Source of the DNA: Thermoanaerobaculia bacterium
GTDB taxonomy: Bacteria > Acidobacteriota > Thermoanaerobaculia > Multivoradales > Multivoraceae
DNA: 64,000 nucleotides
Direction: 5' to 3'
Assembly: GCA_965214805.1 (NCBI GenBank)
Contig: OZ243982.1
Span: 2,748,088-2,812,087 of the forward strand
Positions 31,666 to 51,610 of the stretch are shown here, piece after piece. The translations under genes and the position numbers were made by a program. The notes beneath the pieces were generated by a model. That model worked only from the letters and a program-made list of their open reading frames with translations, was not told the origin of the DNA and made no database searches. Within the stretch, counting starts at the first letter, position 1. Every line of letters begins with the position of its first letter.

Positions 31666-32028
31666 ATGACGACCAGCACGACAGCCAGCACCACGACCAG
31701 CACCGCCAGGAGCACTGCGAAGGGCCTCACCCAAGCCTGGCGCGGCCCGATGCTCGACGCCAACCGCCGCATGCTCGACTTCCAGAAGCGGGCGTTCGAC
31801 ACCACGTTCGACATGGTGGCGCGCGTGCAGGAGCGCCGCGAAGAGGCGATCGTCAACTGGGTCGAGAAGTCCGAACGGCTTCCCGCCGAGGCCGGCAGCC
31901 TGGTGCGCGAGTGGACCCGGCTGTTCCAGGACGGCCGCGGTTCCTACCGCGCCGCGGTGGATGCGAGCTTCGGCCTGGCCAACAGCTACCTCGACTCGCT
32001 CGCTCCGCGGCCGACGGAGGAGTCGTAG
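31666..32028 (+). CDS. Phasin-like / PHA granule-associated small protein (120 aa).
   Basis: GGGAGA ribosome-binding site then ATG at 31666. MTTSTTASTTTSTARSTAKGL...MLDANRRMLDFQKRAFDTTFDMVARVQERREE. It is the first gene of the phaEC operon, divergent from phaR. Confidence 0.45.
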   Translation: MTTSTTASTTTSTARSTAKGLTQAWRGPMLDANRRMLDFQKRAFDTTFDMVARVQERREEAIVNWVEKSERLPAEAGSLVREWTRLFQDGRGSYRAAVDASFGLANSYLDSLAPRPTEES

Positions 32029-32040
32029 AATCGACACGCC

Positions 32041-32589: not shown

Positions 32590-33776
32590 CGACCGCGACC
32601 GGCACTGCCGCCGCCGCGGCGACGCCCGGAGGCCAGCCGCTCCGGTCGGGAAACCCGTTGTCGTCGGGGAGCCCGTTGCCCCTGGACGTGGCCGGGACCC
32701 TCGACATGGCCGCGGTCGCCGACAGCGTTCGGCGCGAGGTGGAGCGCGCGTTCCGGCGCGGCGTCAAGGGTCTGGAGTACATCCGCACGGGCGATCCCGG
32801 CGTCGGCCTGACGCCCAGGGACGTCGTTCACGGCCGCGGCACCCTGCGCCTGTACCACTACCGGGCCCGGGTGGACGAGGTCTACCGGACACCGGTGCTG
32901 CTGGTCATGTCGCTGATCAGCAAGCCGTACATCCTCGATCTGGCGCCCGGCCAGAGCCTGATCGAGTTTCTGCTTGACCGCGGCTTCGACGTCTACATGA
33001 TCGACTGGGGCACACCCCGGCCGGAGGACAAGCGGCTCCGGCTCGAGGACTACGTGCTCGACTTCATTCCGGAGTGCGTCGAAGCCGTCCATGAGCGCAG
33101 CGGCGAGCCCGACGTGTCCATCGCCGGCTACTGCATGGGCGGCCTCCTGGCGGCGCTGTACGCGGCGCTTCATCCCGACGCGGCCTCCGGCGGCCGGCTC
33201 CGCAACCTGGCCTGCTTCACCACGCCGGTGAACTACGACGGCATGGGCCTGTTCAGGACCTGGACCGACCCGGACCACTTCGATGTGGACCGGATCGTCG
33301 ATCGACTGGGCAACGTGCCGCCGCAGATGCTCTACGCGTCGTTCAACCTCTTGCGGCCGGCGTCCCGGATCGCTGGCCGGGTGCGCCTCTGGGACAACAT
33401 GTGGAATGACGAGTTCGTCGTCTCCTACCGCCGGCTCCAGCGCTGGGCCGCGGATCAGATTCCCTTCCCGGGCGAGTGCTTCCGCCAGACGACGAAGGAA
33501 CTGCAGCAGCAGAACCTCCTGATGAAGGGCGAGTTCCGGCTCGGCGGCCGCCTGGTCGACCTGTCGAACATCCGCGTTCCCTTCGTCCACGTCGTGGCGG
33601 AGCACGATCACATCGTGCCGTACGAGGCGGCGCGGGACTTGGTGGGGATGGTCGGCGCCGAGGACAAGGAGGAGATCATGCTGAAGGGCGGCCACGTCAG
33701 CCTGGTGGCGGGGAAGAACGCGGTGCGCCGCCTCTGGCCGCGGCTCGAGCGATGGCTGGCCGAGCGGTCGGTGTAA
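32586..33776 (+). CDS. phaC: PHA synthase catalytic subunit, class III-type PhaC (about 397 aa).
   Basis: Internal ATG at 32586. Alpha/beta-hydrolase with the lipase box GYCMGG, plus ...VVAEHDHIVP....KGGHVS, typical of short PhaC. Confidence 0.85.
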   Translation: MTTATGTAAAAATPGGQPLRSGNPLSSGSPLPLDVAGTLDMAAVADSVRREVERAFRRGVKGLEYIRTGDPGVGLTPRDVVHGRGTLRLYHYRARVDEVYRTPVLLVMSLISKPYILDLAPGQSLIEFLLDRGFDVYMIDWGTPRPEDKRLRLEDYVLDFIPECVEAVHERSGEPDVSIAGYCMGGLLAALYAALHPDAASGGRLRNLACFTTPVNYDGMGLFRTWTDPDHFDVDRIVDRLGNVPPQMLYASFNLLRPASRIAGRVRLWDNMWNDEFVVSYRRLQRWAADQIPFPGECFRQTTKELQQQNLLMKGEFRLGGRLVDLSNIRVPFVHVVAEHDHIVPYEAARDLVGMVGAEDKEEIMLKGGHVSLVAGKNAVRRLWPRLERWLAERSV

Positions 33777-33789
33777 GGGGCTCGCAACG

Positions 33790-34389
33790 ATGACGGAATC
33801 CGGCTCTGCCACCGGCCGCGTGGCGATCAGGCTCGGCGCGATCGACCTCACCGTGCGGCCCATGCGCGCAGACGACCGCACCGCGTTGCTGGCGTTTGCC
33901 GACGGCCTGCCGGACCACGACCTGCTGTTCCTGCGCCGCGACATCCGGGACGCCGAGGTCGTGGACGAGTGGATCGCCGACGTCGAGTCGGGCCGGATGG
34001 AGACCCTGCTGGCCCTGGCCGACGACGAACTGCTTGGCTACGCCTCGATCGACCGCAGTCAACTGCAGTGGTCCTCCCACGTGGCCGAGATCCGGGTCGT
34101 CATCTCCGAGGATGCTCGTGGCAAGGGCCTGGGCCGGCTGCTGGTGGAGCAGGCATTTCAGGCGGCGGTCGCGTCGGGGATCGAGAAGCTCGTGGCCCGG
34201 ATGACGCCGGACCAGAAGGGTGCGGTCGCCGCCTTCGAAGGGCTGGGCTTTCGCCCTGAGGGGCTGATGCGCAACCACGTGCGCGACCTCGCCGGCCAGA
34301 AGCACGATCTCCTCGTCATGGGACTTGACGTGGTGGCCTTCCATTCCACGCTCGAGAGCTACGGCGTCGGTGAACCCTCCGCGGGTTGA
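33790..34389 (+). CDS. GNAT family N-acetyltransferase, directly downstream of phaC and a paralog of 12704..13363.
   Basis: ORF 33790..34389. Shares the conserved core with the other GNAT (LQWSSHVAEIRVVISEDARGKGLGRLLVEQAF). Confidence 0.7.
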   Translation: MTESGSATGRVAIRLGAIDLTVRPMRADDRTALLAFADGLPDHDLLFLRRDIRDAEVVDEWIADVESGRMETLLALADDELLGYASIDRSQLQWSSHVAEIRVVISEDARGKGLGRLLVEQAFQAAVASGIEKLVARMTPDQKGAVAAFEGLGFRPEGLMRNHVRDLAGQKHDLLVMGLDVVAFHSTLESYGVGEPSAG

Positions 34390-34419
34390 GAGAATTCAGG
34401 AGTCGAGGAGAAGGAGCCC

Positions 34420-35958
34420 ATGCAAGACAACGTCGGACTGATCCTGGCCAAGCGCGCCTCCCTGTCGCCGGACATGGAGGGCTTCGTCGACGTGGAAACG
34501 GAGCGTCGCTTCACCTTCGCCGAGTGGAACCTGCGCTCGAACCGGACGGCCAATGCGCTCCGCGAACTGGGCGTCGGCAAGGGCGACCGCGTTGCGCTGC
34601 TGCTGATGAACAGCGTCGAGTACATGGAGACCTTCTTCGCGATCGCCAGGATCGGCGCCGTCTGCGTGCCGCTCAACTGGCGGCTGACGCCCGAGGAACT
34701 CTCCTTCATCATCCGCGACGCGGGCGCCGGGACGCTGGTCTTCGGCGACGAGTTCCGGGTCCAGGCGCTGGACCTGATCGCACGCGGCGGCGGCGAGAAC
34801 GGCACCAGCGTGACGCGGTGGGTGCACGTCGGCCCGGACGAACAGCGGCCGGACGGTTGCCTGTCCTACCTCGACGCGACCACGGCCGCGAGCGACGCGG
34901 AACCCGAGGTTGCGGCCCGTGACAGCGACCTGCTCTACATCATGTACACCTCGGGGACGACCGGGCTGCCCAAGGGCGCAGTCCACACGCACGAGTCCGC
35001 GCTGTGGGCGGGGCTGACGATCATGGCGACCGCGGACATCCGCTACAACGACCGTTTCCTCATCTCCCTGCCGCTGTTCCACGTCGGCGCTCTGACTCCC
35101 GCCGCGGGCAACGTCCACCGGGGCAGCACCAGCATCGTCATGCGGGCGTTCGACCCGGTCCGCGCCTGGCAGCTGATCGACGAAGAGAACATCGACGTCA
35201 TGCTGAAGGTGCCGGCGATGCTCAACTTCATGCTCCAGGCCTACGACCCGAAGCGTTGCCGGCACGACCGGCTCCGCTGGTGCATGAGCGGCGCCGCGCC
35301 CGTGCCCGTCAGCCTGATCGAGGCCTACGACAGGCTGGGCATCGAGATCCACCAGGTCTACGGCCTGACAGAGACCTGCGGCCCCGCCTGCCTGATCTCG
35401 CCCGAAGACGCGATCCGCAAGGCCGGCTCCACGGGCAAGGCCTTCTTCCACACTTCCGTGCGCGTCGTCGACAACGACGGTGCCGACTGCGCCCCGGGTG
35501 AAGCGGGCGAGGTGCTGGTCGCCGGCCGCCACCTGATGAAGGAGTACTGGAACCGCCCGGAGGCCACCGCCGAGACGATCGTGGACGGCTGGCTCCGCAC
35601 CGGCGACGGCGCGGTGATGGACGAGGACGGCTTCGTGTACATCCAGGACCGGCTCAAGGACATGATCATCTCCGGCGGCGAGAACGTCTATCCCGCGGAG
35701 CTCGAAGAGGTCATCGTCCGTCATCCCAAGGTGCTCGAGGTCGGCGTCATCGGCCGCGAGAGCGAGAAGTGGGGCGAGTCCCCGGTGGCCGTCGTCGTCC
35801 GCTCCGACGAGAGCCTCCAGGGCGAGGAGATCCTCGAGTTCTGCCAGGACAAGCTGGCGCGCTTCAAGCAGCCGGTAGCGGTCCACTTCATCGACTCGTT
35901 GCCGCGCAACCCGTCCGGGAAGCTCCTGAAGCGGCTGCTGCGGGAGCGGTTCAACTGA
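34420..35958 (+). CDS. AMP-dependent acyl-CoA synthetase/ligase (FadD-like).
   Basis: ORF 34420..35958. AMP-binding motif YTSGTTGLPKGAV, with YGLTE and GWLRTGD motifs. Confidence 0.85.
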   Translation: MQDNVGLILAKRASLSPDMEGFVDVETERRFTFAEWNLRSNRTANALRELGVGKGDRVALLLMNSVEYMETFFAIARIGAVCVPLNWRLTPEELSFIIRDAGAGTLVFGDEFRVQALDLIARGGGENGTSVTRWVHVGPDEQRPDGCLSYLDATTAASDAEPEVAARDSDLLYIMYTSGTTGLPKGAVHTHESALWAGLTIMATADIRYNDRFLISLPLFHVGALTPAAGNVHRGSTSIVMRAFDPVRAWQLIDEENIDVMLKVPAMLNFMLQAYDPKRCRHDRLRWCMSGAAPVPVSLIEAYDRLGIEIHQVYGLTETCGPACLISPEDAIRKAGSTGKAFFHTSVRVVDNDGADCAPGEAGEVLVAGRHLMKEYWNRPEATAETIVDGWLRTGDGAVMDEDGFVYIQDRLKDMIISGGENVYPAELEEVIVRHPKVLEVGVIGRESEKWGESPVAVVVRSDESLQGEEILEFCQDKLARFKQPVAVHFIDSLPRNPSGKLLKRLLRERFN

Positions 35959-36136
35959 GCCGGCGTCGCCGGGGATATCCGGGCACTCGAGCGGCGCCCG
36001 CGCGCAGCCTGCCGACACGCCTCCAGCAGCGAGCCGCGCGACGGTTGACGCCGAGGGAAACCGCGCAGAAGACCATCGGCCGAGTCCCGGAAGGCGCGGT
36101 CGAGGCAACCGACGGCAAGATCGCCTGATCTGTCGG

Positions 36137-39686: not shown

Positions 39687-40841
39687 TCATGGGCGGTTGC
39701 GGCGCCTGGCCTGCCGTTCAGCCGGCTCGTTGCCGGCCGGGGAGGGCGTCGGACCCGGTCGAACCGACGGGGACCGGAGCAGAAACCCGATTCCCCAGCT
39801 CAGGTGCATGGTTGCGAGGACCAGGGGGAGCAGGATCGCTGCGCAGGACCGGCGGCGGATGCCGACCATCAGCGAGCCGAACGTCAGGGTGAGAATGTAC
39901 GTTAGCGGCAGCGCCGCTGCCGCCCAGGGGGGGGCGCCTGCCGCGGCCAGCAGCGGCGAGCCGGCCAGTCCCAGCAGCAACAGCGGGCTGGCGAGCTGCC
40001 GAGGCAGCAGGGAGGCTGGATGTCGTCGCGCCACGACCCGCTTCCACCGCCCGTAGTCGAAGTACTGCCGGGCGAGGTCCCGCAAGGTGTCGCGGGGCCG
40101 GTGGACGACCACGAGCGCAGGATCGAACCACACCGTTTCGCCGTGCGCCCGCAGCCGCCAGTTGAGTTCGTAGTCCTGGTTTCGAACGAGGGTGGGGTCG
40201 ATGCCGCCCACCGCCTCCAGCGCATCGCGCCGAAAGACTCCCAGGAACACGGTGTCGACGGGCCCCTCCGAGCCGCCCAGTCGATAGCGGGCGTTGCCTG
40301 CCCCCAGGGGAGTGGTCATCGCCAACGCCACCGCGCGGCCGAAGAACGTGGCTCCTGTCGGCTGTTGCCGGCCTCCGACATTGGCCGCTCCGGTTCGCTG
40401 CAACGTATTCACCGCGCGGCGCAGGTAGCCGGGTGGGAACACCGCATGAGCGTCGCACCGCACGATGATCTCTCCGGTTGCCGCCCGGCACGCCGCGCGG
40501 ATTCCGAACCCGGTGGTCTGTTCCGGATTGGGAACCAGTCTCACTGTCGGGTACAGCCGCCGAACGAGATCGGACGTGGCCCCGGTGTCGGAACCGTCAG
40601 CGACGATCAGTTCCACCGGGCCTTCGTAGTCCTGGGACAACACCGAGTCGATCGCCTCCCCGATCGTCGCCTCGGCGTTGCGGGCCGGGATGAAGACCGA
40701 CACCGACGGCAGGGGGCGTTGCAGAGAAACTGTCGCAGGAACGGTGGTCGACTGTGGCACCGCCGGCGCGAACCGGTCACTGGCAGCCTGCGACACGGAG
40801 GCCTGCGTCGTGCCGAAAGCGGTCAGGCGGCCGTCCGGCAA
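39687..40841 (-). CDS. Family 2 glycosyltransferase with C-terminal TM segments.
   Basis: ORF 39687..40841. VSVFIPARNAEATIGEAIDSVLSQ...ELIVADGSD...DAH GT-A motifs. The N-terminal extension is uncertain. Confidence 0.8.
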   Translation of the reverse strand: MPDGRLTAFGTTQASVSQAASDRFAPAVPQSTTVPATVSLQRPLPSVSVFIPARNAEATIGEAIDSVLSQDYEGPVELIVADGSDTGATSDLVRRLYPTVRLVPNPEQTTGFGIRAACRAATGEIIVRCDAHAVFPPGYLRRAVNTLQRTGAANVGGRQQPTGATFFGRAVALAMTTPLGAGNARYRLGGSEGPVDTVFLGVFRRDALEAVGGIDPTLVRNQDYELNWRLRAHGETVWFDPALVVVHRPRDTLRDLARQYFDYGRWKRVVARRHPASLLPRQLASPLLLLGLAGSPLLAAAGAPPWAAAALPLTYILTLTFGSLMVGIRRRSCAAILLPLVLATMHLSWGIGFLLRSPSVRPGPTPSPAGNEPAERQARRRNRP

Positions 40842-41057
40842 AGGCGCGACGAGGAAGAGGCGAGGAGAAGAGAGGAAGCATGGCGTCCCGGAACAGCAGA
40901 AGGCGACGGGTCAAAGACCTGGTCTCGATGACCTGGCTTCAACCCGCCGCCCTTGGAACCCTGGACGCCGGAAACCCCTCTGGGGATCTGAGGGACCCGC
41001 GTCAACGCCGGTCCCTTGGTGTCCCCAAAGGGGGTCCCCGTGCTTCGTGTGAATCCC

Positions 41058-42119
41058 TTAGTTGACCGCCGGAAACGGGCTCTCCGGATCAAGTTCCACG
41101 CCCCGAGATGCCTCCGGCACAGGCGGACACTCAATGCTGAACATGGCCGTTGGCCCGTCAGTAGTGAACCCCGGAATCGTGTTCCTGGAGCTGGTGGCGC
41201 TGATCACCATTGCGGTGGGCGTGCCGCGATGCTGGTTGGTGCGACGACACGGATCAGCCGGTCCCGCTGTGTCCAGGTCAAGCGCCGGGATCGTCAAGGT
41301 CAGGCTGGCGGTCTGGTCCCCTTCCATGTAGCTGCCATCGTCCTTGTAGATGGCAGGCAGCGAGGTACCGTCCGGGCCGGTGTAGTTGAATGCCGCCGTC
41401 ACGTCCCCATTGGGATTGATGGCGACGCTTCCCTCGTTCCCGATCGACACGGTGAGCGCCATGGCATCATCGCCTCGCGTGATCGTCGTGCCCTTGACCG
41501 AGTCCCCGTCTGCATTGTCGATCTCGAGGGTGTATTCGCCCGACAGCAGACAATCGCTGCGCATGGGGCCGCACTTCTCGGGCTCCGCCGCGGGGAGAAT
41601 GTGCGGAAGAATGCCGACCCGTCCGCTGGTCGTGTCCTTGACCAGGGTCGCGTAATCACGGCTGGTCATCGTGATGTCGCCGCCCGACACGTCGAAGGGC
41701 GCCGTCTGCATGTTGGTCAGCACGCGATCCGGCAGCAGGTTCGAGACGGCGGAGTTCGTCTCGTCGTGGATCCAGTACCAGCCGCCGTCCTTCAGCCCGT
41801 GGATCTGGATCTCGCCGTCGTCCTGGTGGCAGGCGAGGCCGTTGTCCTCGGTGAACAGATGCGCGACGTTGCCGTCGTCGTCCGGATCGACCGACGCGGT
41901 GATGTTGATGTTGCCGCAGGTGACGATGAGTCCGACGCTGGTGAGCTTCTCGCCTTCCGCCATCGCCTCATCGTTGAACTCGCCGACGAAGCCGCCGCTG
42001 CCCTTGAAGAAGGGCACCACATGGCACTCGCCCTCGGGGCACTCGGCTGTCACCTCCGCCTGGGCAAACGCGAATGCCGGCACCAGGGCCAGCATGATTG
42101 CAATCGCTACCGCTTTCAC
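41058..42119 (-). CDS. Secreted protein, tandem-array paralog 1 (353 aa): conserved N-terminal domain plus a variable C-terminal domain.
   Basis: ORF 41058..42119, with a GTG start inside the conserved leader. Signal peptide (M)KAVAIAIMLALVPAFAFAQ. ECPEGECHVVPFFKGSGGFVGE...GGWYWIHDETNSAVSNLLP. C-terminal tail ...IECPPVPEASRGVELDPESPFPAVN. Confidence 0.75.
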   Translation of the reverse strand: MKAVAIAIMLALVPAFAFAQAEVTAECPEGECHVVPFFKGSGGFVGEFNDEAMAEGEKLTSVGLIVTCGNINITASVDPDDDGNVAHLFTEDNGLACHQDDGEIQIHGLKDGGWYWIHDETNSAVSNLLPDRVLTNMQTAPFDVSGGDITMTSRDYATLVKDTTSGRVGILPHILPAAEPEKCGPMRSDCLLSGEYTLEIDNADGDSVKGTTITRGDDAMALTVSIGNEGSVAINPNGDVTAAFNYTGPDGTSLPAIYKDDGSYMEGDQTASLTLTIPALDLDTAGPADPCRRTNQHRGTPTAMVISATSSRNTIPGFTTDGPTAMFSIECPPVPEASRGVELDPESPFPAVN

Positions 42120-42400
42120 AGTTTCTCTTCTCCTTCTCTCTCCTGGCGGCGGAGGGTTCCTCCTGACCGCGCTCGTTTCGGGACCCGGCGCTCGACGCGA
42201 GTACCGGAGTTGTTCTGCGACCCCGAGAACGTCAACTCGGGGGGCAAGCTCGACGGTCGCTCCATCACCTCCAGGAGAAAAAGTCTGCAGGACGACGCCC
42301 AGGAGAAGAATCCCCCCTGATGGGGCGCGCCTGCCTGTTTCCAGTGTCGTGTACGCTAACCCGGAACCGGCGACGGTGTCAACCTCGGTTCGGCCGCGCG
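42120..42400 (-). repeat. Conserved 5' leader and promoter block of the paralog array, copy 1 of 4 (near-identical ~270-bp unit).
   Basis: agtttctcttctccttctctctcctggcggcggagggttcctcctgaccgcgctcgtttcggg...ccaggagaagaatccc...gtttccagtg... recurs at 44032, 46234 and 48279 with only a few mismatches. The minus-sense read ends in a purine-rich GGAGAGAGAAGGAGAAGAGAAACTGTG RBS/start. Confidence 0.8.
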
Positions 42401-42439
42401 GATAAGAGCGGATAAACCGGAACAGCCGATGGTCCCCGA

Positions 42440-42840
42440 GGACTGCGAGCAGGCCCTGTCCGAGTGGCTGGGGCTACCCCGTGCCGATGATCAACCGGCG
42501 CGGTCTGTTCCCGGAACAGCAACCAGTCCTCTGTCCCAGTCCTCGCCGTCGGGTACGACGGGCCGGATACGGCCGCTCACCGTCGGGATGCAGTCGCCGA
42601 ACAAAGGTCGGGCGGATGGCCCCGGTGTCGGATCCGTTGGGCGACGATCGGTTCCACCGGGCCTTCGCAAGGCCTTCGTGGTCGCCGGGACAACACCGAG
42701 TACACACGGTCGTTCCTGCCTCCCGTCTTGGGGGCTTGTCCGGTTGTTGATTACCCCCGACCGTCGCCTCGGCGTTCCGCGGTGGGGATGAAGCCGACAC
42801 CGACGGCATTGGCGTTGCCGAGGAACTGTCGTAAACAGAA
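42440..42840 (-). pseudogene. Degenerate copy of the 5' region of the GT2 gene (39687..40841), carried within amplification unit 2.
   Basis: Stretches such as ggtctgttcccggaacagcaaccagtc...gccgaacaaaggtcgggcggatggccccggtgtcggatccg...gttccaccgggccttcg...gacaacaccgagt parallel 40400-40740 at about 70-80% identity with indels. Confidence 0.45.
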
Positions 42841-42969
42841 GAAAGGCGACGGGCCAAAGACCTGGTCTCGATGACCCGGCTTTCGACCCGCCGCCCTGGG
42901 ATGCACCGGAATCCGTCAGGAGGTAACCGCGGCCTCCTCCCAAGGGTCCTGTGCTTCGTGTGAACTCCC

Positions 42970-44031
42970 TTAGTCGACCGGGAACGGGTTCTCCGGAACG
43001 AGTTCCACACCCCGAGATGCGTCCGGCACAGGCGGACACGCGATGTGGTACATGGCCGTTGGTCCGTCGGTAGTGAACCCCGGAATCGTGTTCGTGGAGC
43101 TGACGGCGCTGATCACCACGCTGATCGGCGTGTCGCGAAGCTGGTTGTTGCGGCGACACGGATCATTCGCGTTGGTCAGGGAGGCAGCGTTAAACTTCGG
43201 GACCTTCACGGTCAGGCTCTCGGCCTGACTCCCGGGAGAGTATGTGCCACGGTCGGTGTAGATAGAAGGCACCACGGTGCCGCCCGGGCCGCCGGTGCGG
43301 AATTCCGTCATCACGGGATTAGCGGGTTCAACGGCGACGTTTCCCTCGCCCCCGATCGACGCCGTGACCGACATGTCGTCATCGCCTCGCGTGATCGTCG
43401 TGCCCTTGACCGAGTCCCCGTCTGCATTGTCGATCTCGAGGGTGTATTCGCCCGTCAGCAGACAATCGCTGCGCATGGGGCCGCACTTCTCGGGCTCCGC
43501 CGCGGGGAGAATGTGCGGAAGAATGCCGACCCGTCCGCTGGTCGTGTCCTTGACCAGGGTCGCGTAATCACGGCTGGTCATCGTGATGTCGCCGCCCGAC
43601 ACGTCGAAGGGCGCCGTCTGCACGTTGGTCAGCACGCGATCCGGCAGCAGGTTCGAGACGGCGGAGTTCGTCTCGTCGTGGATCCAGTACCAGCCGCCGT
43701 CCTTCAGTCCGTGGATCTGGATCTCGCCGTCGTCCTGGTGGCAGGCGAGGCCGTTGTCCTCGGTGAACAGATGCGCGACGTTGCCGTCGTCGTCCGGATC
43801 GACCGACGCGGTGATGTTGATGTTGCCGCAGGTGACGATGAGTCCGACGCTGGCGATCTCCTCGCCGTCCACCATGATGTCGGTGTCGAGCTCGCCGACG
43901 AAGCCGCCACTGCCCTTGAAGAAGGGCACCACATGGCACTCGCCCTCGGGGCACTCGGCTGTCACCCCCGCCTGGGCAAACGCGAATGCCGGCACCAGGG
44001 CCAGCATGATTGCAATCGCTACCGCTTTCAC
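42970..44031 (-). CDS. Secreted protein, tandem-array paralog 2.
   Basis: Same signal peptide and N-terminal domain, with the GTG start equivalent to paralog 1. The central/C-terminal region is diverged (…VAVEPANPVMTEFRTGGPGGTVVPSIY…). The tail is conserved (GVELVPENPFPVD). Confidence 0.75.
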   Translation of the reverse strand: MKAVAIAIMLALVPAFAFAQAGVTAECPEGECHVVPFFKGSGGFVGELDTDIMVDGEEIASVGLIVTCGNINITASVDPDDDGNVAHLFTEDNGLACHQDDGEIQIHGLKDGGWYWIHDETNSAVSNLLPDRVLTNVQTAPFDVSGGDITMTSRDYATLVKDTTSGRVGILPHILPAAEPEKCGPMRSDCLLTGEYTLEIDNADGDSVKGTTITRGDDDMSVTASIGGEGNVAVEPANPVMTEFRTGGPGGTVVPSIYTDRGTYSPGSQAESLTVKVPKFNAASLTNANDPCRRNNQLRDTPISVVISAVSSTNTIPGFTTDGPTAMYHIACPPVPDASRGVELVPENPFPVD

Positions 44032-44310
44032 AGTTTCTCTTCTCCTTCTCTCTCCTGGCGGCGGAGGGTTCCTCCTGACCGCGCTCGTTTCGGGACCCGG
44101 CGCTCGACGCGAGTACCGGAGTTGTTCTGCGACCCCGAGAACGTCAACTCGGGGGGCAAGCTCGACGGTCGCTCCATCACCTCCAGGAGAAAAAGTCTGC
44201 AGGACGACGCCCAGGAGAAGAATCCCCCTGATGGGGCGCGCCTGCCTGTTTCCAGTGTCCGGCACACTAACCCGGAACCGGCGACGGTGTCAACCTCGGG
44301 TCGCCCGCGC
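44032..44310 (-). repeat. Conserved 5' leader block, copy 2.
   Basis: Near-identical to 42120-42400. Confidence 0.8.
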
Positions 44311-44389
44311 GGACACCGGAAACAGCCGATGGTCCCCGAGGACTGCGAGCCGGCCCTGTCCGAGAGGCTGGGGCTACCCCCGTGTCGAT

Positions 44390-44610
44390 GATCGGCGCGG
44401 GTCTCTGTTCCCGGAACAGCAACCAGTCCTAGGCCTCGCCGTCGGGTACGACAGGCCGGGTACGGCCGCTCACCGTCGGGATGCAGCCGCCGAACGAGGT
44501 CGGGCGATGGCCCCGGTGTCGGACTCCGTTCTTCGCAGCCCCCCTCGCAAGGCCTTTCGTGGTCGCCGGGACAACACCGAGTCACATGGTTATTCCTGCC
44601 CCTTCTGGGG
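44390..44610 (-). pseudogene. Degenerate GT2 5'-fragment, in amplification unit 3.
   Basis: gtcgggtacgacaggccgggtacggccgctcaccgtcgggatgcagccgccgaacgaggtcgggcgatggccccggtgtcggactccg...gacaacaccgagtc is similar to 40540-40640. Confidence 0.4.
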
Positions 44611-45021
44611 TTGGCGTCCCGGAAAACAGAAGAATGGCGACGGTTCGAAGACATGGTCTCGATGATCTGGTTTCGACCCGCCGCCCTGGAAGCCTCTGGG
44701 GACCTGAGGAAAAGCCGACGCCGGCCCCTGATCTCCTCAAGGGGGGGGTGGTCCCGTGCTTCGGTGAATCCCTGGTCGAACGAGGAACAGGTTCTCCGGA
44801 ACGAGTCCACGTGCCCCGCGTCAACCTTCGGGACTTTCAGGTCAGCCTGTCGGCGTCAGTACTTCCGTCGGTGGGACTCCCTGCCTTCTGCTCGTCGACC
44901 CGGGTAGCAGTCTTGACCTGCCAGGCAACTCCCGCACCAGCATCGTCTTTCGGTTTCGGCGCGCCCCCGTGCGGCCCGCGTCAGAACTCCCGCCGGCGGG
45001 AACCCGGACACGCATGGACGA

Positions 45022-45076
45022 GAACAGAAAAGAGAAGGGCGACGGGCGAAGACCATGGCCTTCGACCCGTCGCCCT
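45022..45076 (-). terminator. Rho-independent terminator downstream of paralog 3.
   Basis: Minus-sense GGGCGACGGGtcgaaggccatggtcttcgCCCGTCGCCC followed by TTCTCTTTTCTGTTCTCG. Confidence 0.6.
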
Positions 45077-45156
45077 GAACGCCGGAACCGGTGATGGGAC
45101 AAGGGGCCGTGACGCCCCTACCCACATGCGTTCCGATTGGCTTCGTGTGGATTCCC

Positions 45157-46233
45157 TTAGTCGACCGGGAACGGATTCTCCGGGACGAGTTCCACGCCCT
45201 CGGAGCCCTCATCGAGAGCTGGACACGAAACCTCGTAGAAGGCCGATGGCCCATCATCCATCATGAAACCCGGAATCGTGTGCATGGACGTGTCGAGCGT
45301 GACAACCACACGGTACGGCTTGTCGCGATGCTGGTTGTTGGTGTAACACGGATCATCAGCTTCGGCCAGCGCTGTGGCATCAAGCTTCGGCACCGTCAAT
45401 GTGATGCTCGACGTGGCCGTCAGCCCCGTCGTTGTGGTGTAGAGGTCAGGCACCGCGGTTCCGTCAGGGCCGCTGACAACGAAGTTCGCAGTCGGTTCCG
45501 TCGCCGGCTCGGCTCGGATGATTCCCTCACCCCCGATCGACACCGTGAGCTCAATGTCGTCGTCGCCTCGCGCGATCGTCTTGCCGTTGAACGACTCATC
45601 CTCGGCATTCTTGATCTCGACGGTGTACTCGCCCGTCAGCACGCAGCCCGTGCGCGTGTCGTCGTCGCACTTCGGGGTCGGGGTCGTCGCGGCGGGCGGC
45701 GGCTCGGGGAGAATGTGCGGAAGGATGCCGACCCGTCCGCTGGTCGTGTCCTTGACCAGGGTCGCGTAATCACGGCTGGTCGTCGTGATGTCGCCGCCCG
45801 ACACGTCGACGGGCGCCGTCTGCGTGTTTTCCAGCACGTCCTTCGGCAGCAGGTTCGAGACGGCGGAGTTCGTCTCGTCGTGGATCCAGTACCAGCCGCC
45901 GTCCGTCAGCCCGTGGATGTTGATGTCGCCGCTGTCCTGATCGCAGGCGAGGCCGTTGTCCTCGGTGAACAGATGCACGACCTTCCCGTCGGCGTTCGGA
46001 GCGGCCGACGCTGTGGTGGTGATGTTGCCGCAGGTGACGACGAGCGTGGCCTCGGTGATCTCCTCGCCGTCCACCATGATGCTGGTGTCGAGCTCGCCGA
46101 CGAAGCCGCCGCTGCCCTTGAAGAACGGCACCACATGGCACTCGGCGTCGGGGCAGTCGGCTGTCACCCCCACTTGGGCAAACGCGAATGCCGGCACCAG
46201 GGCCAGCATGATTGCAATCGCTACCGCTTTCAC
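45157..46233 (-). CDS. Secreted protein, tandem-array paralog 3.
   Basis: ORF 45157..46233. Conserved N-terminal domain. Pro/Thr/Ala-rich linker PEPPPAATTPTPKC. Distinct C-terminal domain. Conserved tail GVELVPENPFPVD. Confidence 0.75.
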   Translation of the reverse strand: MKAVAIAIMLALVPAFAFAQVGVTADCPDAECHVVPFFKGSGGFVGELDTSIMVDGEEITEATLVVTCGNITTTASAAPNADGKVVHLFTEDNGLACDQDSGDINIHGLTDGGWYWIHDETNSAVSNLLPKDVLENTQTAPVDVSGGDITTTSRDYATLVKDTTSGRVGILPHILPEPPPAATTPTPKCDDDTRTGCVLTGEYTVEIKNAEDESFNGKTIARGDDDIELTVSIGGEGIIRAEPATEPTANFVVSGPDGTAVPDLYTTTTGLTATSSITLTVPKLDATALAEADDPCYTNNQHRDKPYRVVVTLDTSMHTIPGFMMDDGPSAFYEVSCPALDEGSEGVELVPENPFPVD

Positions 46234-46510
46234 AGTTTCTCTTCTCCTTCTCTCTCCTGGCGGCGGAGGGTTCCTCCTGACCGCGCTCGTTTCGGGACCC
46301 GGCGCTCGACGCGAGTACCGGATTTGTTCTGCGACCCCGAGAACGTCAACTCGGGGGCAAGCTCGACGGTCGCTCCATCACCTCCAGGAGAAAAAGTCTG
46401 CAGGACGACGCCCAGGAAGAAGAATCCCCTGATGGGGCGCGCCTGCCTGTTTCCAGTGTCCGGCACACTAACCCGGAACCGGCGACGGTGTCAACCTCGG
46501 GTCGCCCGCG
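46234..46510 (-). repeat. Conserved 5' leader block, copy 3.
   Basis: Near-identical to 42120-42400 (with a 1-nt indel in the G-run). Confidence 0.8.
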
Positions 46511-47049
46511 CGGACACCGGAAACAGCCGATGGTCCCCGAGGACTGCGAGCAGGCCCTGTCCGAGAGGCTGGGGCTACCCCCGTGTCGATGATCGGCGCG
46601 GGTCTCTGGGCGTGTCGGGTCGATTGCCTCCCCCGACCATCGCCTCGGCGCGCCGTCCGGCAAAGGCGCGACGCGGAGAATGAGGAAAGCACGGCGTCCC
46701 GGAAAACACAGAAGAAGGCGACGGTTCGAAGACCTTGAAGACTTGGTCTCGACGACCTGAGCTTCGCAACCCGTCGCCTTGGAACCCTGGGCGTGGGCGC
46801 CGGGAACCTCTCTGGGGACCTGAGGAAAAAGCCGACGCCGGCCCCCTGATCTTCTCGCGATTCGAGAAACTCGACGTGCTCATCGTCGATGCGTGAACAG
46901 GCCCCAGTCGACCCGGATAGCACAGTCTTGACTGCCAGGCAACTCCCGCATCGGCACCGTTTTCAGCGCGCCCCGTGCGCTCGCGTCCAACACCGCCAGT
47001 GGCGGGGACCCGGCCTCAGGGGGTTCGACGCGCATGGACCGGAAAAGAG

Positions 47050-47100
47050 GACAGAAAAAGAAAGGCGACGGGCGAAGACCATGGCCTTTGCCCGTCGCCC
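47050..47100 (-). terminator. Rho-independent terminator downstream of paralog 4.
   Basis: Minus-sense GGGCGACGGGC-aaaggccatggtcttc-GCCCGTCGCC followed by TTTCTTTTTCTGTCCTCTTTTCC. Confidence 0.65.
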
Positions 47101-47162
47101 TGAAGGGGCCGCGACGCCCCGCTCTTTACCCACATGCGTTCTGGGTGGCTTCGTGAGATCCC

Positions 47163-48278
47163 TTAGTCGACCGGGAACAGATTGTCCGGGATGAGTTCCA
47201 CGCCCCCCACGGCGCTACCCGGGAGAGGCGGACAGCGAACCGCGTAAGCGGCCGATGGCCCATCATCTGTGAATCCCGGAACCGTGTTACCGGAATTGGT
47301 GGCCGTGATGGCCACCACGATCGCTACGTCGCGACGCTGGTTGCTTTCGCCACACGGATCAGTCGTGCTTCGCTGGGCAAGAGAGTTGAATATTGGCATC
47401 GGCAAATCGATGGACGCCACATCAGTCCCGGTCACCCCCCCCCCGTATACGTTAGGCACGTTGGAGTTGCCGTCGAGGTCGGTGACAACGAAGTCCGCCG
47501 TTATTTCTCCAGTGCTGTCGACTTTGATGATTCCAGTGCCTGTGACCGACGCCGTGATCGTAAGGCTGGCAAGTGTTGATCGGGTGAAAGTGAAGCCAGC
47601 GATCTTGGTTCCGGCTATTATCGACGGAGCTGATATCTCGATATCGACTTCGTAATCGCCCGTCAGCAGGCAACCCTTGCGCCTGCCGCCTTCGCACTTC
47701 GGGGTCGGGGTCGTCGCGGCGGGCGGCGGCTCGGGGAGAATGTGCGGAAGGATGCCGACCCGTCCGCTGGTCGTGTCCTTGACCAGGGTCGCGTAATCAC
47801 GGCTCGTCATCGTGATGTCGCCGCCCGACACGTCGACGGGCGCCGTCTGCGTGTTTTCCAGCACGTCCTTCGGCAGCAGGTTCGAGACGGCGGAGTTCGT
47901 CTCGTCGTGGATCCAGTACCAGCCGCCGTCCGTCAGCCCGTGGATGCTGATCTCGCCGCTGTCCTGATCGCAGGCGAGGCCGTTGGCCTCGGTGAACAGC
48001 TGCACGACCTTCCCGTCGGCGTTCGGAGCGGCCGACGCTGAGGTGGTGATGTTGCCGCAGGTGACGACGAGCGTGGCCTCGGTGATCTCCTCGCCGTCCA
48101 CCATGATGCTGGTGTCGAGCTCGCCGACGAAGCCGCCGCTGCCCTTGAAGAAGGGCACCACATGGCACTCGGCGTCGGGGCAGGAAACGCTCGTCTTTGC
48201 CGGCTCGGACACGCCGCCCTGCGCAAACATGAATGCCGGCACCAGGGCCAGCATGATTGCAATCGCTACCGCTTTCAC
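47163..48278 (-). CDS. Secreted protein, tandem-array paralog 4.
   Basis: ORF 47163..48278. Conserved N-terminal domain and PEPPPAATTPTPKC linker. Yet another C-terminal domain. Tail GVELIPDNLFPVD. Confidence 0.75.
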   Translation of the reverse strand: MKAVAIAIMLALVPAFMFAQGGVSEPAKTSVSCPDAECHVVPFFKGSGGFVGELDTSIMVDGEEITEATLVVTCGNITTSASAAPNADGKVVQLFTEANGLACDQDSGEISIHGLTDGGWYWIHDETNSAVSNLLPKDVLENTQTAPVDVSGGDITMTSRDYATLVKDTTSGRVGILPHILPEPPPAATTPTPKCEGGRRKGCLLTGDYEVDIEISAPSIIAGTKIAGFTFTRSTLASLTITASVTGTGIIKVDSTGEITADFVVTDLDGNSNVPNVYGGGVTGTDVASIDLPMPIFNSLAQRSTTDPCGESNQRRDVAIVVAITATNSGNTVPGFTDDGPSAAYAVRCPPLPGSAVGGVELIPDNLFPVD

Positions 48279-48545
48279 AGTTTCTCTTCTCCTTCTCTCT
48301 CCTGGCGGCGGAGGGTTCCTCCTGACCGCGCTCGTTTCGGACCCGGCGCTCGACGCGAGTACCGGAGTTGTTCTGCGACCCCGAGAACGTCAACTCGGGG
48401 GCAAGCTCAACGGTCGCTCCATCACCTCCAGGAGAAAAAGTCTGCAGGACGACGCCCAGGAGAAGAATCCCCCTGATGGGGCGCACCTGCCTGTTTCCAG
48501 TGTCGTGCACGCTAACCCGGAACCGGCGACGGTGTCAACCTCGGC
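48279..48545 (-). repeat. Conserved 5' leader block, copy 4, at the array boundary. Homology ends at about 48545.
   Basis: Near-identical to the other copies, then unique sequence begins. Confidence 0.8.
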
Positions 48546-49772: not shown

Positions 49773-50195
49773 ATGAAGAAACTGCGGGGGACGAAGATGA
49801 ACATCGGCAAGGACCTGGTAGCCGCCTCGGCTGCGCCGCTCGTGCTGGCGATCCTGGTCGAGGGCGACAACTACGGCTACGCGATCATCAAGCGGGTGAG
49901 CGAGTTGTCGGGCGGCCGCCTGCGGTGGACGGACGGCATGCTCTATCCGGTGCTGCACCGTCTCGAGCGGCTGGGCCATGTCGAGGCGCGCTGGGCGACA
50001 GCGAAGAGCGGCCGTTGCCGCCGGTACTACCGCATCACCGAGGCGGGGCGGGCGCACCTGGAGACGCAGAGAAGGCAATGGCAGGCGGTGGACGCCACGC
50101 TCCGGGAGGTCTGGATGGTGTTCTTCCGGGCACCGGATGCAGGACAGGCGCCGCGGCGATGGGGGAAACGATGGGGGATTCGACCGGCATGGTGA
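49773..50195 (+). CDS. PadR-family transcriptional regulator.
   Basis: ORF 49773..50195. LVLAILVEGDNYGYAIIKRVSELSGGRLRWTDGMLYPVLHRLERLGHVEARW...GRCRRYYRITEAGR. Confidence 0.8.
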   Translation: MKKLRGTKMNIGKDLVAASAAPLVLAILVEGDNYGYAIIKRVSELSGGRLRWTDGMLYPVLHRLERLGHVEARWATAKSGRCRRYYRITEAGRAHLETQRRQWQAVDATLREVWMVFFRAPDAGQAPRRWGKRWGIRPAW

Positions 50196-51610
50196 CACGC
50201 GGCGATCCGCCTGATCCGCTCGAGACGCGGATAGAGACGCGGATAGAGACGCAGATGACGCAGTGGCGGAACTGGCTGCGGCGGCGGCCCGCGATCCGCG
50301 ATGCGGACGTGGAGGAGCTCGAAGCCCACCTGCGCGACGTGGTCGCGGAACTCCGTGCCGGCGGCCTCGCCGGCGACGAGGCGTTCCTGGTTGCGGTCAA
50401 GCGGATGGGCGGCCTGGACGCGGTGTCGCGCGAGTTCGCCCGCGAGCAGTCCGAGCGGCTGTGGAAGCAACTCGTGGTGGGAACGGCCGCGGACGGGGCG
50501 TCGAAGCGGCGCACGCTGCGCGAGACCGTCGTGATGATCGCGCTGGCGCTTGCCGCGGCGGCGGCGATCAAGCTGCCCGAGCTGTTCGGCTATCCGCAGA
50601 TCGGAGCGGGAGAAGGTCTCTTCGACAACGAGGCGGCCCCGCACTTCCGCAACATGAGCTTCTTCGTGCTTCCGTTTCTCGCCGGCTACTTCGCCTGGAA
50701 GCGCCGGTTGAGCCGGGCGGGGTGCGTCCGGCTGGCGGCGGCGTTCCTCGTCGGCGCGATCGCCATCAACGCCTACCCCTCCGCGCCCCCCGGTGACACG
50801 CTGACGCTCGCGGCGCTTCATCTGCCGATTGCCCTGTGGCTTGCCGTGGGGTTCGCCTACACCCGGGGGCGCTGGCGCGCCGGCAGCGGACGGATGGACT
50901 TCGTGCGCTTCTCCGGCGAGCTGTTCATCTACTACGTGCTCATGGCACTGGGCGGCGGCGTCCTCATGGGGATCACCGGCCTCACGTTCGCCGCCATCGG
51001 CCTGGACGCGGAGCGGTTCGTTCTCCAGTGGCTGTTCCCCTGCGGCGCCATGGGGGCCGTGATCGTCGGCGCCTGGCTCGTGGAAGCCAAGCAGAGCGTG
51101 GTCGAGAACATGGCGCCCGTGCTGACGCGCCTGTTCACGCCCCTGTTCGCCGCCGTGCTGCTCGTGTTCCTCGGCGCCATGGCGTGGACGGGGAGCAGCA
51201 TCGGCGCGGACAGGGAGGTGCTCATCGCCTTCGACCTGCTCCTGGCGACCGTTCTCGGACTCCTGCTCTATGCGGTCTCGGCGCGCGATCCGGAGGCCCC
51301 TCCGGGCCTGTTCGACGCGCTGCAGTTCCTGCTTGTCGTCTGCGCCCTGATCGTCGACGCCCTGGCGCTGGCCGCCATTGCCGGCCGAATCTCCGAGTTC
51401 GGAGTCAGTCCGAACAAGATGGCGGCGCTGGGCGAGAACCTCGTTCTGCTCGTCAACCTGTCGTGGTCCGCCTGGCTGTACGGCCGCTTCCTCACCGGCC
51501 GCGGACGGTTCTCGGCCCTCGTGCGCTGGCAGACCGTCTATCTGCCCGTGTACGCCGCGTGGGCCGCGTTCGTCGTCCTGGCGTTCCCGCCCTGGTTCGG
51601 TTTCAGGTAG
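50189..51610 (+). CDS. Polytopic membrane protein with a cytoplasmic N-terminal helical domain, co-operonic with PadR (a PadR-associated membrane sensor/anti-regulator module).
   Basis: The ATG at 50189 overlaps the PadR stop (ATGGTGA). An alternative ATG lies at 50255. The N-terminal domain is MTQWRNWLRRRPAIRDADVEELEAHLRDVVAELRAGGLAGDEAFLVAVKRMGG, followed by about 8 TM helices. Confidence 0.65.
   Translation: MVTRGDPPDPLETRIETRIETQMTQWRNWLRRRPAIRDADVEELEAHLRDVVAELRAGGLAGDEAFLVAVKRMGGLDAVSREFAREQSERLWKQLVVGTAADGASKRRTLRETVVMIALALAAAAAIKLPELFGYPQIGAGEGLFDNEAAPHFRNMSFFVLPFLAGYFAWKRRLSRAGCVRLAAAFLVGAIAINAYPSAPPGDTLTLAALHLPIALWLAVGFAYTRGRWRAGSGRMDFVRFSGELFIYYVLMALGGGVLMGITGLTFAAIGLDAERFVLQWLFPCGAMGAVIVGAWLVEAKQSVVENMAPVLTRLFTPLFAAVLLVFLGAMAWTGSSIGADREVLIAFDLLLATVLGLLLYAVSARDPEAPPGLFDALQFLLVVCALIVDALALAAIAGRISEFGVSPNKMAALGENLVLLVNLSWSAWLYGRFLTGRGRFSALVRWQTVYLPVYAAWAAFVVLAFPPWFGFR

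Follow-up and report, generated by a model that had tools for sequence, protein, structure and literature searches.

Four tandem genes on the minus strand of the window (the whole stretch of 64,000 nucleotides that was analysed) probably constitute a multigene family that arose by lineage-specific tandem amplification of one gene and whose recombining members encode variable envelope or secreted proteins. According to the proposed explanation, one family gene would have been tandemly amplified in this lineage to four copies, each forming an independent transcription unit with promoter, ~260-nt leader and terminator. The front part (leader, signal peptide and CBM-like N-domain) would be homogenized by gene conversion and would also supply the homology for recombination. 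Between copies and strains, the Ig-like C-domain and a 20-residue loop of the N-domain would be swapped as cassettes, with dN/dS of at least 1, and purifying selection would preserve the disordered end ELVPENPFPV(D/E), which would serve as a short motif for recognition. The N-domain may be the module, shared by all copies and probably glycan-binding, through which the proteins attach or assemble; the tail may be a signal for sorting, anchoring or binding a partner, and the variable domain may form the exposed surface on which phage or host exert diversifying pressure. Cellular location and function were inferred from sequence and fold only. If this explanation is true, the locus encodes a single abundant envelope or secreted protein in several alternative versions that can recombine.

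Organization of the tandem array

The sequence-only reading had described an array of four secreted-protein genes, and this was borne out. Four intact ORFs of 353–371 aa were found on the minus strand, which aligned full-length and were 57–80% identical in amino acids to paralog 1. Paralog 1 (41058..42119, 353 aa; P0002; family HMM E=7e-110) contained a Sec signal peptide, an N-terminal β-sandwich, a variable Ig-like C-domain and a tail ending GVELDPESPFPAVN. In paralog 2 (42970..44031, 353 aa; P0001), the N-domain was located at ~43504–43962, the C-domain at ~43036–43461 and the tail at 42973–43035. Paralog 3 (45157..46233) had 358 aa (P0005), and paralog 4 (47163..48278, 371 aa; P0008) diverged furthest in the C-domain and carried 6 additional aa behind the signal peptide. 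Self-comparison for repeats gave units of ~2 kb each, with direct-repeat families at periods of 1912, 2202 and 2027–2045 bp, and sliding identity was run on the four units. The unit was composed of a promoter-like site, a ~260-nt leader, the family gene, a hairpin/U-run terminator and a relic of the 5′ end of a GT2 gene. Unit similarity stopped at ~48558, beyond leader 4.

The source of the relics was the neighbouring GT2 glycosyltransferase gene (39687..40841, minus strand; Pfam PF00535, E=3.6e-23), whose 5′ end had been duplicated together with the family gene. Decayed copies, already noticed in the sequence, were identified in all three spacers, which hold GT2 codons ~43–118 and the GT2 upstream region at 67–90% DNA identity. 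They were located on the minus strand at 42576..42831 (GT2 aa ~43–118; blastn 67%/258 nt; tblastn 37%/99 aa, E=3e-7), at 44469..44772 (GT2 5′ end at 44469–44583, 78%/119 nt, and a copy of the GT2-upstream/terminator region at 44612–44772, 72%/184 nt; repeat family D14) and at 46616..46848 (5′ end plus upstream region; 86%/35 nt and 74%/216 nt). The presence of a relic in each spacer indicated segmental duplication, in agreement with the amplification claimed earlier.

An expanded or collapsed repeat in the assembly would be in line with the near-identity of the 5′ 300–900 bp of the units, and also with a third strain, in whose short-read assembly the contig breaks inside the array and leaves a mosaic copy (P0006), possibly an assembly chimera, at the contig end. 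However, the C-domains and the spacers differed among the four units, and the complete, independently assembled 4.2-Mb contig of a sister genome carried the same four-unit locus in the same order between PadR and GT2. An assembly artefact is therefore extremely improbable. The copy number in this related genome was likewise four, with one copy interrupted by an IS.

Leaders, promoters and terminators

All four leaders were found on the minus strand. Leader 1 (42120..42382; nhmmer E=9e-98) contained a promoter-like TTGACA-N18-TAGCGT at 42353–42382, the box CTTTTTCTCCTGGAGGTGATGG at 42262–42283, and an RBS (AAGGAG) with a GTG start at 42117–42135. The promoter-like site was identical in all four units and lay at 44264–44293 in leader 2 (44032..44293), at 46465–46494 in leader 3 (46234..46494) and at 48509–48538 in leader 4 (48279..48538; repeat family D6), with the boxes at 44174–44195, 46375–46396 and 48419–48440, respectively. 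As the sequence-only reading had stated, the 5′ leaders were nearly identical: leader plus signal peptide (~300 bp) showed 98–100% sliding identity among the four copies, and units 1–3 were alike to ~400 bp. A phase-variable contingency locus would carry a long simple-sequence tract in promoter, leader or ORF. Run lengths of homopolymers were almost the sole differences between leaders; the runs in the window leaders were only G4–6 and C5–6. Tracts of G12 and G14 were observed in leaders of homologs from one other genome (L040, L042).

A terminator for each gene had also been claimed, and a long GC hairpin with a U-run was found 75–130 nt past the stop codon of every paralog. These terminator-like elements, all on the minus strand, were located 3′ of paralog 1, just upstream of the GT2 gene (40890..40952; GC hairpin and U-rich run read from the sequence, with the architecture of the folded hairpins; repeat family D14), 3′ of paralog 2 (42837..42896; fold z-score –4.15), 3′ of paralog 3 (45026..45075; fold z-score –5.19) and 3′ of paralog 4 (47041..47100; long U-run, from folding and sequence). 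A simple terminator scan gave no call at the array hairpins, which were found by reading and folding the sequence. The consensus –35 element, the long conserved leader, the strong terminators and the high GC3 of the N-part suggest that the genes may be highly expressed.

The leader box GGAGGUGAUG preceded family genes across genera. The box GGAGGUGAU was a strong SD-like sequence 154–224 nt upstream of the real start codon, with an AUG always directly after it. As summarized in PMC12970973 and PMC7509114, which cite Agaisse & Lereclus (1996), STAB-SD is a Shine-Dalgarno-like mRNA stabilizer in the B. thuringiensis cry3A leader. The array leaders appear similar in having a strong SD-like sequence far upstream of the start, a long leader and a presumably highly expressed gene. 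They differ in that they belong to another phylum, carry the AUG directly after the box and are known from sequence alone.

Protein family and predicted folds

Searches with all four paralogs returned no Pfam family at E<=1 and no NCBIfam family at E<=0.01, and the family profile found nothing below E 0.9 among PDB sequences, which supported the earlier description of a variable, cassette-like secreted family matching no known one. The family comprised 266 clusters among 1.8 billion, all in Acidobacteriota MAGs. By sequence and model, it is an undescribed family of predicted Sec-exported, cysteine-rich, two-domain β-sandwich proteins of Acidobacteriota.

Structure prediction gave AF2 models with pLDDT of 86.9–89.6 (paralog 2, 86.9, with the tail <60), in which the N-terminal β-sandwich was CBM/TM1070-like, the variable domain Ig-like and the C-terminal end disordered. 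The N-domain, a GGWYWI β-sandwich of ~150 aa ending in SGRVGILPHILP, has two conserved cysteine pairs predicted to form disulfides. Its top fold matches, with low scores, were TM1070/ASRAH, CBMs, lectins and β-sandwich domains of glycoside hydrolases. According to PMC2739507, sugar binding is predicted for TM1070/ASRAH domains, which are found as extracellular repeats too. However, identity of the N-domain to TM1070/ASRAH (ASRT-like) domains and CBMs was 7–9%, with no Pfam match at E<=1, and membership in ASRAH/ASRT (PF07100) or a CBM family was rejected because there was no sequence-profile match and the SHEshChhN signature was absent. A c-type cytochrome was rejected as well: CPEGECH in the window is CX4CH, and the family His was replaced by Q/Y/T or displaced (63 CX4C-H versus 110 other forms). 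The family was also not regarded as polymorphic toxins, since the C-domain is modelled as an Ig-like β-sandwich and the spacers hold only leader, terminator and GT2 relics, with no immunity gene.

In other genera, tandem arrays and a fast-evolving C-domain were also present, and family-wide the C-domain always diverged faster than the N-domain, yet stayed intact. Arrays in ~25 other genomes consisted of 3–4 old paralogs, tight and co-directional, with a median N-domain identity of 45%, one leader before the first gene, a recurrent order and one member without the tail. Tandem arrays and a fast C-domain are general, ancient traits of the family, and the lineage-specific features are the monocistronic 2-kb units and their homogenization.

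Divergence of the N- and C-terminal parts

Window copies (W1–W4) were compared with sister-genome copies (S), giving seven intact copies from the two complete genomes of the lineage. Within the leader and signal peptide (columns –119 to +30), window copies were 97–100% identical to each other versus 82–96% to sister copies. In the N-domain, W1 and W2 were 99% identical versus 93–95% between window and sister copies; DNA identity was 98–100% within the pairs (1,2) and (3,4) and 83–95% between pairs. Greater likeness of leader and signal peptide within than between genomes indicated concerted evolution, and paralogs exceeding orthologs in identity over part of their length is what defines a multigene family evolving in concert. 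Gene conversion at both ends, as proposed from the window, thus agreed with the 5′ end (99–100% within the genome versus 83–96% to the sister), but not with the 3′ tail. Likewise, the flanks quoted as ~99% identical were so on the 5′ side only, as dS in the tail was 0.14–0.68. The tail is conserved, as had been said, but by purifying selection across the family and not by conversion in this array.

Sliding identity fell to 45–65% (DNA) in the C-domain among the four units and was ~65–89% in the tail. Differences at 4-fold sites were 1–9% in the N-part and 10–32% in the C-domain (Fisher p 0.04 to 7e-5 for most pairs), so divergence along the genes was non-uniform, as the sequence-only reading had it. 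GC3 was 0.89–0.91 in the N-part versus 0.68–0.79 in the C-part. The statement that paralogs 3 and 4 have essentially different C-domains did not hold: at 37% aa identity these domains are clearly homologous, with cysteines and core residues in common.

Background divergence between the two genomes, taken from flanking genes, was dS 0.035–0.046 with dN/dS 0.19–0.31. In the C-domain, dS was 0.18–0.59 and dN/dS 1.0–1.9 by pairwise NG86 on seven alleles, values that may be inflated at 69% GC and for which the flanking genes are the sole calibration. Synonymous divergence of the C-domain was 5–12 times that of the N-domain and 5–15 times that of the flanking genome, which indicated that old alleles were exchanged by recombination. 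The positional counterparts W4 and S4 were 91% identical in the N-domain and only 40–44% in the C-domain, which in near-identical strains pointed to exchange of whole cassettes; the best match of the W3 C-domain was S4/S3x. The internal domain had been said to diversify, and the pairwise dN/dS agrees with this, but simple divergence in place does not account for the dS. The sequence comparison argues that the cassettes are not just diversifying in situ: old alleles appear to be exchanged, with dN/dS at or above 1.

Neutrality, too, would give a dN/dS near 1. The genes might be ordinary recent tandem duplicates in which redundancy relaxed constraint on the C-domain and neutral decay followed, with no adaptive cassettes; the GC of the array, which is below that of the flanks, and the IS-broken sister copy would fit. 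However, all seven intact copies retained the reading frame, all cysteines and the core residues, which indicated that the array genes are not decaying, and the C-domain remains intact family-wide despite its speed. Furthermore, relaxation cannot produce dS that varies along the gene and reaches 5–15 times background, and concerted evolution was seen in the noncoding leader. Neutral decay is thus rather improbable.

C-terminal tail and genomic neighbourhood

The tail was a near-invariant, disordered ELVPENPFPV(D/E), and the proteins stopped 2–5 residues after VPENPFP. In 2.4 Mb of DNA (±10 kb around family genes), the motif occurred 66 times inside family ORFs and twice outside, both in decayed family copies. 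Like PEP-CTERM/exosortase, T9SS CTD and LPXTG signals, it is a near-invariant motif at the C-terminal extreme of signal-peptide proteins, and VPENPFP superficially resembles the VPEP of PEP-CTERM. True sorting signals occur on many unrelated proteins, whereas this motif was on one family only in the DNA sampled; it also lacks a transmembrane helix or basic cluster and has no NCBIfam/Pfam match. A PEP-CTERM/exosortase substrate was rejected because no transmembrane segment or Arg-rich cluster follows the motif and no TIGR02595-type match was obtained.

Two N-domains in tandem were also found at the very C-terminal end of S8 proteases, LRR and cadherin/fn3 proteins. It is conceivable, and we suggest it only tentatively, that the GGWYWI domain, the ELVPENPFPV(D/E) peptide and the GGAGGUGAUG-box leader form an unrecognized system by which host-associated Acidobacteriota display or assemble proteins on the cell surface. 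If so, the domain would anchor or polymerize cargo, namely the small variable proteins and the proteases, LRR and cadherin-like proteins with C-terminal tandem domains; the tail would act as a novel type of signal for sorting or docking, and the tandem array would be a hypervariable, recombining component.

These N-domain pairs on other secreted proteins are also consistent with the paralogs being differentiated subunits of one surface structure (a fibre, pilus-like polymer or S-layer-like lattice), in which N-domain and tail assemble and the C-domains are sub-functionalized, not subject to antigenic or receptor variation. The invariant, disordered tail is as a docking peptide would be and might, for example, dock onto the next subunit. 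The ~25 genomes with old paralogs in tight, ordered arrays with a tail-less member point the same way, and the array of 'Ca. Multivorans', 3–4 old paralogs in a tight operon-like arrangement including a tail-less member, fits variation and separate subunits of a single structure equally well. In the window, however, each copy is provided with a separate promoter, leader and terminator. Homogenization and strain-to-strain swaps of C-domains are unexpected for fixed subunit roles, the C-domain dN/dS is at or above 1, and no usher, sortase or secretin was conserved near family genes. Fixed subunits are thus unlikely, though they retain some weight beside the recombining variable family that we prefer.

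The array neighbours were GT2, sugar transferase, Wzy_C, PadR and permease genes. The association with a glycan module, as the sequence-only reading put it, stood as adjacency but not beyond: relatives of the Wzy_C gene elsewhere had no array nearby, and the GT2 that also follows the 'Ca. Multivorans' arrays was non-orthologous. Glycosyltransferase genes next to arrays in two lineages, together with the fold matches of the N-domain, would suit secreted proteins that bind glycans to capture nutrients or to attach to a matrix, and whose C-domain specificity varies with substrates and not with antagonists. However, the fold scores were low without sequence matches to CBM or ASRT models, no hydrolase or transporter partner was conserved near family genes, and conflict loci are the more typical setting for strain-level cassette replacement with dN/dS of at least 1. 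We consider glycan capture improbable.

Comparison with known variation systems

A diversity-generating retroelement target was rejected, as no further copy of a C-domain segment was present outside the four genes, the variation includes indels over ~400 bp and no RT was seen among the annotated neighbours. Neisseria pilE/pilS and Borrelia vlsE are silent-cassette antigenic variation systems. The array shares with them conserved flanks as homology arms for replacement of a variable segment. In contrast, no single expression site, promoterless cassettes or programmed switching element was seen at the array, and a silent-cassette locus was rejected because none of the four copies lacks a promoter-like site, leader, RBS, signal peptide, full ORF or terminator, and all look expressible.

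The babA/babB/babC genes of H. pylori form a paralogous outer-membrane family shaped by gene conversion. They are unrelated to the array genes in fold and family, and are dispersed whereas the array copies are in tandem; 3′ conservation in the array is a 10-residue motif under selection, and surface location here is only predicted. By analogy, the two systems would be alike in having several full-length expressed paralogs, 5′ regions that are homogenized, divergence in an internal or distal region, and recombinant chimeras between copies and strains.

Array structure and origin

Four intact open reading frames were found on the minus strand at 41058-42119, 42970-44031, 45157-46233 and 47163-48278, encoding proteins of 353, 353, 358 and 371 aa (paralogs W1 to W4) that could be aligned over their full length. 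Direct-repeat families with a period of ~1.9-2.2 kb spanned the array region. In a four-way alignment of the units, the leader and signal peptide (~300 bp) were 98-100% identical in all four copies, and this likeness reached ~400 bp in units 1-3. The DNA of the N-terminal β-sandwich (N-domain) was 98-100% identical inside the pairs (1,2) and (3,4) and 83-95% identical between them. Identity among the four units was 45-65% in the variable Ig-like domain (C-domain) and ~65-89% in the C-terminal tail. Open reading frames, direct repeats and alignment thus agreed on four intact secreted-protein paralogs in ~2-kb repeats, as the sequence-only reading had it. It had also given each unit its own terminator and a decayed GT2 5' end, and both were located: a long GC hairpin with a U-run lay 75-130 nt past the stop of every array gene, and every spacer held a degenerate stretch of the neighbouring GT2 gene, copied from its 5' coding end and upstream region. 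The array therefore arose by tandem duplication of one segment that comprised the GT2 5' end, the family gene and its leader.

The same four-unit locus, lying between PadR and GT2, was present on an independently assembled 4.2-Mb contig of a sister strain (L001), with one copy interrupted by an insertion sequence. This finding and the differences among the units argued against an assembly artefact, a concern raised beforehand. The third array copy of L001 (5033-7084) was frameshifted, being called as fragments of 81 and 212 aa, and adjoined an insertion sequence of the DDE_Tnp_1 type; the array is thus an IS target as well.

The G+C content of the array (41000-48000) was 0.63-0.65, compared with 0.67-0.71 in the flanks. 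Its upstream border was formed by a PadR-family regulator gene followed by one for a membrane protein with 'permease prefix domain 1' (49773-51610), a pair conserved in the sister and a third strain. Beyond Wzy_C on the other side, PhaC-like, PHB_acc_N (in the sister), short-chain dehydrogenase, AMP-binding and GNAT genes were observed (window 28921-36000; L001 16125-21056); this polyhydroxyalkanoate-related region had no apparent link to the array. A tRNA search of the window found none.

Evolution of the copies

Background divergence between the window and the sister strain was taken from four flanking genes, those for GT2, the sugar transferase, Wzy_C and PadR (dS 0.035-0.046, dN/dS 0.19-0.31, 97-99% amino acid identity). 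The leader and signal peptide showed 97-100% identity across the four copies of the window, compared with 82-96% to the sister copies, and the N-domains of W1 and W2 were 99% identical, compared with 93-95% between window and sister. Because identity within the array exceeded that between strains, it was concluded that leader, signal peptide and N-domain have undergone concerted evolution by gene conversion inside the array since the strains split.

The C-domain behaved differently from the N-domain of the same gene pair. Its dS of 0.18-0.59 was 5-12 times that of the N-domain and 5-15 times the genomic background, with dN/dS of 1.0-1.9. Differences at 4-fold degenerate sites amounted to 10-32% in the C-domain, 1-9% in the N-part and 3.4% in the flanks, and GC3 was 0.68-0.79 in the C-part versus ~0.89-0.91 in the N-part. 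The positional counterparts W4 and S4 (a sister-genome copy) were 91% identical in the N-domain and only 40-44% in the C-domain, and the nearest relatives of the W3 C-domain were those of the sister copies S4 and S3x. High dS, the mismatch of W4 with S4, the match of W3 with S4/S3x and the drop in GC3 together showed that divergent old C-domain alleles have been swapped in cassette form. Homology arms for such exchange exist in the conserved front half and at the SGRVGILPHILP junction. A 20-residue loop of the N-domain (residues 47-66) showed the same cassette-like behaviour. A protein of the third strain (P0006) apparently combined a W2-type front with a W4-type back, although, being encoded at the end of a contig, it may be chimeric.

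The non-uniform divergence along the gene that the sequence-only reading had described was evident in both dS and 4-fold sites. Homogenisation of the ends by gene conversion held for the 5' part but failed for the tail, whose dS of 0.14-0.68 indicated no homogenisation; since its motif was nonetheless retained, the tail must be under purifying selection. Diversification of the internal domain, also proposed earlier, agreed with the raised dN/dS, but the C-domains were exchanged as old cassette alleles. If the copies were simply decaying neutrally, their frames should not be intact nor dS heterogeneous along the gene; this explanation was contradicted by both, and the retention of reading frames, cysteines and core residues in all copies likewise indicated that they are not decaying.

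Protein family and domain architecture

The sequence-only reading had not recognised the family, and indeed no Pfam or NCBIfam match was obtained and no PDB sequence scored below E=0.9. An exact-sequence look-up of paralog 2 (P0001) returned no match, the only hits of a Foldseek search of the PDB were generic Ig-like proteins with low TM scores, and literature searches on the motifs and 'Multivorans' taxa retrieved no description of the family. It is small, with 212 cluster representatives (90% identity) among 5.8 billion and, by profile search, 266 of 1.84 billion 50%-identity clusters. Among species-representative genomes it was limited to Acidobacteriota MAGs labelled 'Ca. Multivorans', Thermoanaerobaculia, Holophagales or Acidobacteria. 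These are poorly studied, uncultured bacteria, and many of the bin names suggest a sponge or coral metagenome source, which would make the group largely inhabitants of sponges and corals.

Members start with a Sec signal peptide, cleaved at an AxA-type site, and share an N-terminal signature, C-x(2-4)-C...(A/V)P(Y/F)F.G.GGF(V/I)G, a further motif DGGWYWI and eight largely conserved cysteines. About half ended in ...C-P-x(5-10)-G-x-ELVP(E/D)NPFP(V/T)(D/E), with nothing beyond. The AlphaFold2 model (pLDDT 86.9; N-domain alone 89.6) comprised a pair of β-sandwich domains together with a disordered tail. The motif CX4CH was considered as a c-type haem motif and rejected as a site of haem attachment.

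Two N-domains in tandem were also found to form the extreme C-terminus of other, large secreted proteins, namely S8 subtilases (S8 + P-domain) and LRR, cadherin/fn3, Calx-beta, reprolysin-like and endonuclease/phosphatase-family proteins. The pair (P0209-P0248; L055-L061, e.g. L056 7925-10819) closed with ...LIGIVPH... Such placement is the behaviour expected of a shared attachment or assembly module. It suggests a common anchoring module of 'eukaryote-like' surface proteins, and its presence on proteases, LRR and cadherin-like proteins points to a shared attachment mechanism of these proteins in symbionts.

Arrays in other genomes

Most other genomes contained three or four old paralogs in tight co-directional arrays, with one member lacking the tail. 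These paralogs shared a median identity of 45% over the N-domain and 25% over the C-domain; at every divergence level, the C-domain was far less conserved than the N-domain. An arrayed arrangement and a fast-evolving C-domain are therefore ancestral; peculiar to the window is that the gene was amplified anew into monocistronic units of 2 kb, which were homogenised. The operon-like arrays of other genomes favour the main alternative, in which each paralog would be a different subunit of a single structure, whereas the independent transcription units, homogenisation and strain-level swapping of the window array oppose it.

In 'Ca. Multivorans' arrays (L002-L046, e.g. L006 7494-8783), the second gene consistently stopped right after the last Cys-Pro, without ELVPENPFP; the tail is thus an optional appendage, and the tail-less paralog is conserved. 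Directly upstream lay a gene for a Tle1-like (DUF2235) α/β-hydrolase of the T6SS phospholipase-effector type (L002 8220-9488; L064 5571-6776). Directly downstream of the arrays came genes for an ABC-2 permease, a GT2 and a 469-aa GNAT-like protein.

A glycan-module setting had been proposed for the array. The array was followed by a GT2 gene in both lineages, but the 'Ca. Multivorans' GT2 was not orthologous to that of the window (27% over 182 aa), which excluded it as a conserved glycan partner. The ABC-2, GT2 and 469-aa genes had no homolog in the window, and Wzy_C relatives in two other genomes had no array nearby. The glycan link is therefore weak.

Leader and conserved box

Because a promoter/terminator scan found no promoter and missed real hairpins, these elements were identified by comparison and folding. 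All four units contained a promoter-like TTGACA-N18-TAG(C/T)GT and, ~155 nt ahead of the GTG start, the box CTTTTTCTCCTGGAGGTGATGG. In the form (C)UUUU..C.(U/G)GGAGGUGAUG it lay on the minus strand at 42262-42283, 44174-44195, 46375-46396 and 48419-48440, and also in loci L002-L053, ~140-224 nt ahead of family genes. Its GGAGGUGAU is what we take to be a perfect 9-nt complement of the bacterial 16S rRNA 3' end, the window having no rRNA gene. GGAGGTGAT was counted 75 times in the 2.45 Mb of locus sequence retrieved; 52 of these copies were 140-224 nt upstream of a family gene, where a G always followed, making AUG. The genes so preceded were the first of an array or solitary, in lineages only ~40% identical in protein.

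An upstream ORF after the box was rejected as a conserved peptide, since 1-nt indels shift its frame among copies and its length varied from 3 to 49 codons across genomes. Nor was the window leader a strongly structured RNA (MFE z-score only -1.4), and Rfam gave no match over the whole window at the gathering threshold or over 40.8-49.2 kb at E<=1. The 'Ca. Multivorans'-type leader (~260 nt, 29 sequences) yielded a consensus of 11 helices, with 97.9% of cells paired versus 21-44% when partners were slid, and compensatory changes in helices 4, 7 and 10; covariation support was confined to this type and did not extend to the window leader. The 'Ca. Multivorans'-type leader likewise matches nothing in Rfam.

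Besides a few substitutions within their first ~50 nt, the four near-identical leaders differed mainly in homopolymers (G6/G5/G4/G5 and C6/C6/C5/C5; unit 1 ~42320 / 42247 and equivalents in units 2-4). The C-run length set the end of the short ORF after the box, either a stop after 10 codons or a TGA that shares bases with the GTG start (GTGA). In genome OZ220482.1, the leaders of homologs (L040, L042) had G12 and G14 tracts at ~-85 relative to the start codon, a hint of phase variation by slippage.

The nearest known analogue of the box is STAB-SD of the cry3A leader, described as an mRNA stabiliser in the passages of PMC12970973 and PMC7509114 that cite it. We hypothesise that the leader could act in mRNA stability or translation. 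Possibly this leader is a new element of cis-regulation or stabilisation, and the family-specific box is a candidate for post-transcriptional control or mRNA stabilisation outside Firmicutes.

Proposed role and comparison with known systems

The comparisons established tandem duplication, 5' concerted evolution, cassette exchange, raised C-domain dN/dS and a selected tail. The products would be abundant envelope or secreted proteins, in which the common N-domain attaches or assembles the protein, possibly on glycan, the tail serves as a recognition peptide and the Ig-like domain forms an exposed, contested surface. The locus makes a clear natural case in which three processes can be distinguished inside a single gene: its 5' half evolves in concert, its C-domain is replaced by cassettes and its tail is held by purifying selection.

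So far as our searches reach, there is no earlier description of the protein family, its tail motif, the twofold use of the N-domain or the leader box specific to the family. Classification as a DGR target, a silent-cassette system, a polymorphic toxin, a haem protein or a PEP-CTERM substrate was rejected, each missing a defining feature. Variable surface proteins encoded by recombining multigene families are a familiar phenomenon; if our reading holds, the array would add a new family and a new short C-terminal motif to the bacterial means of varying exposed features.
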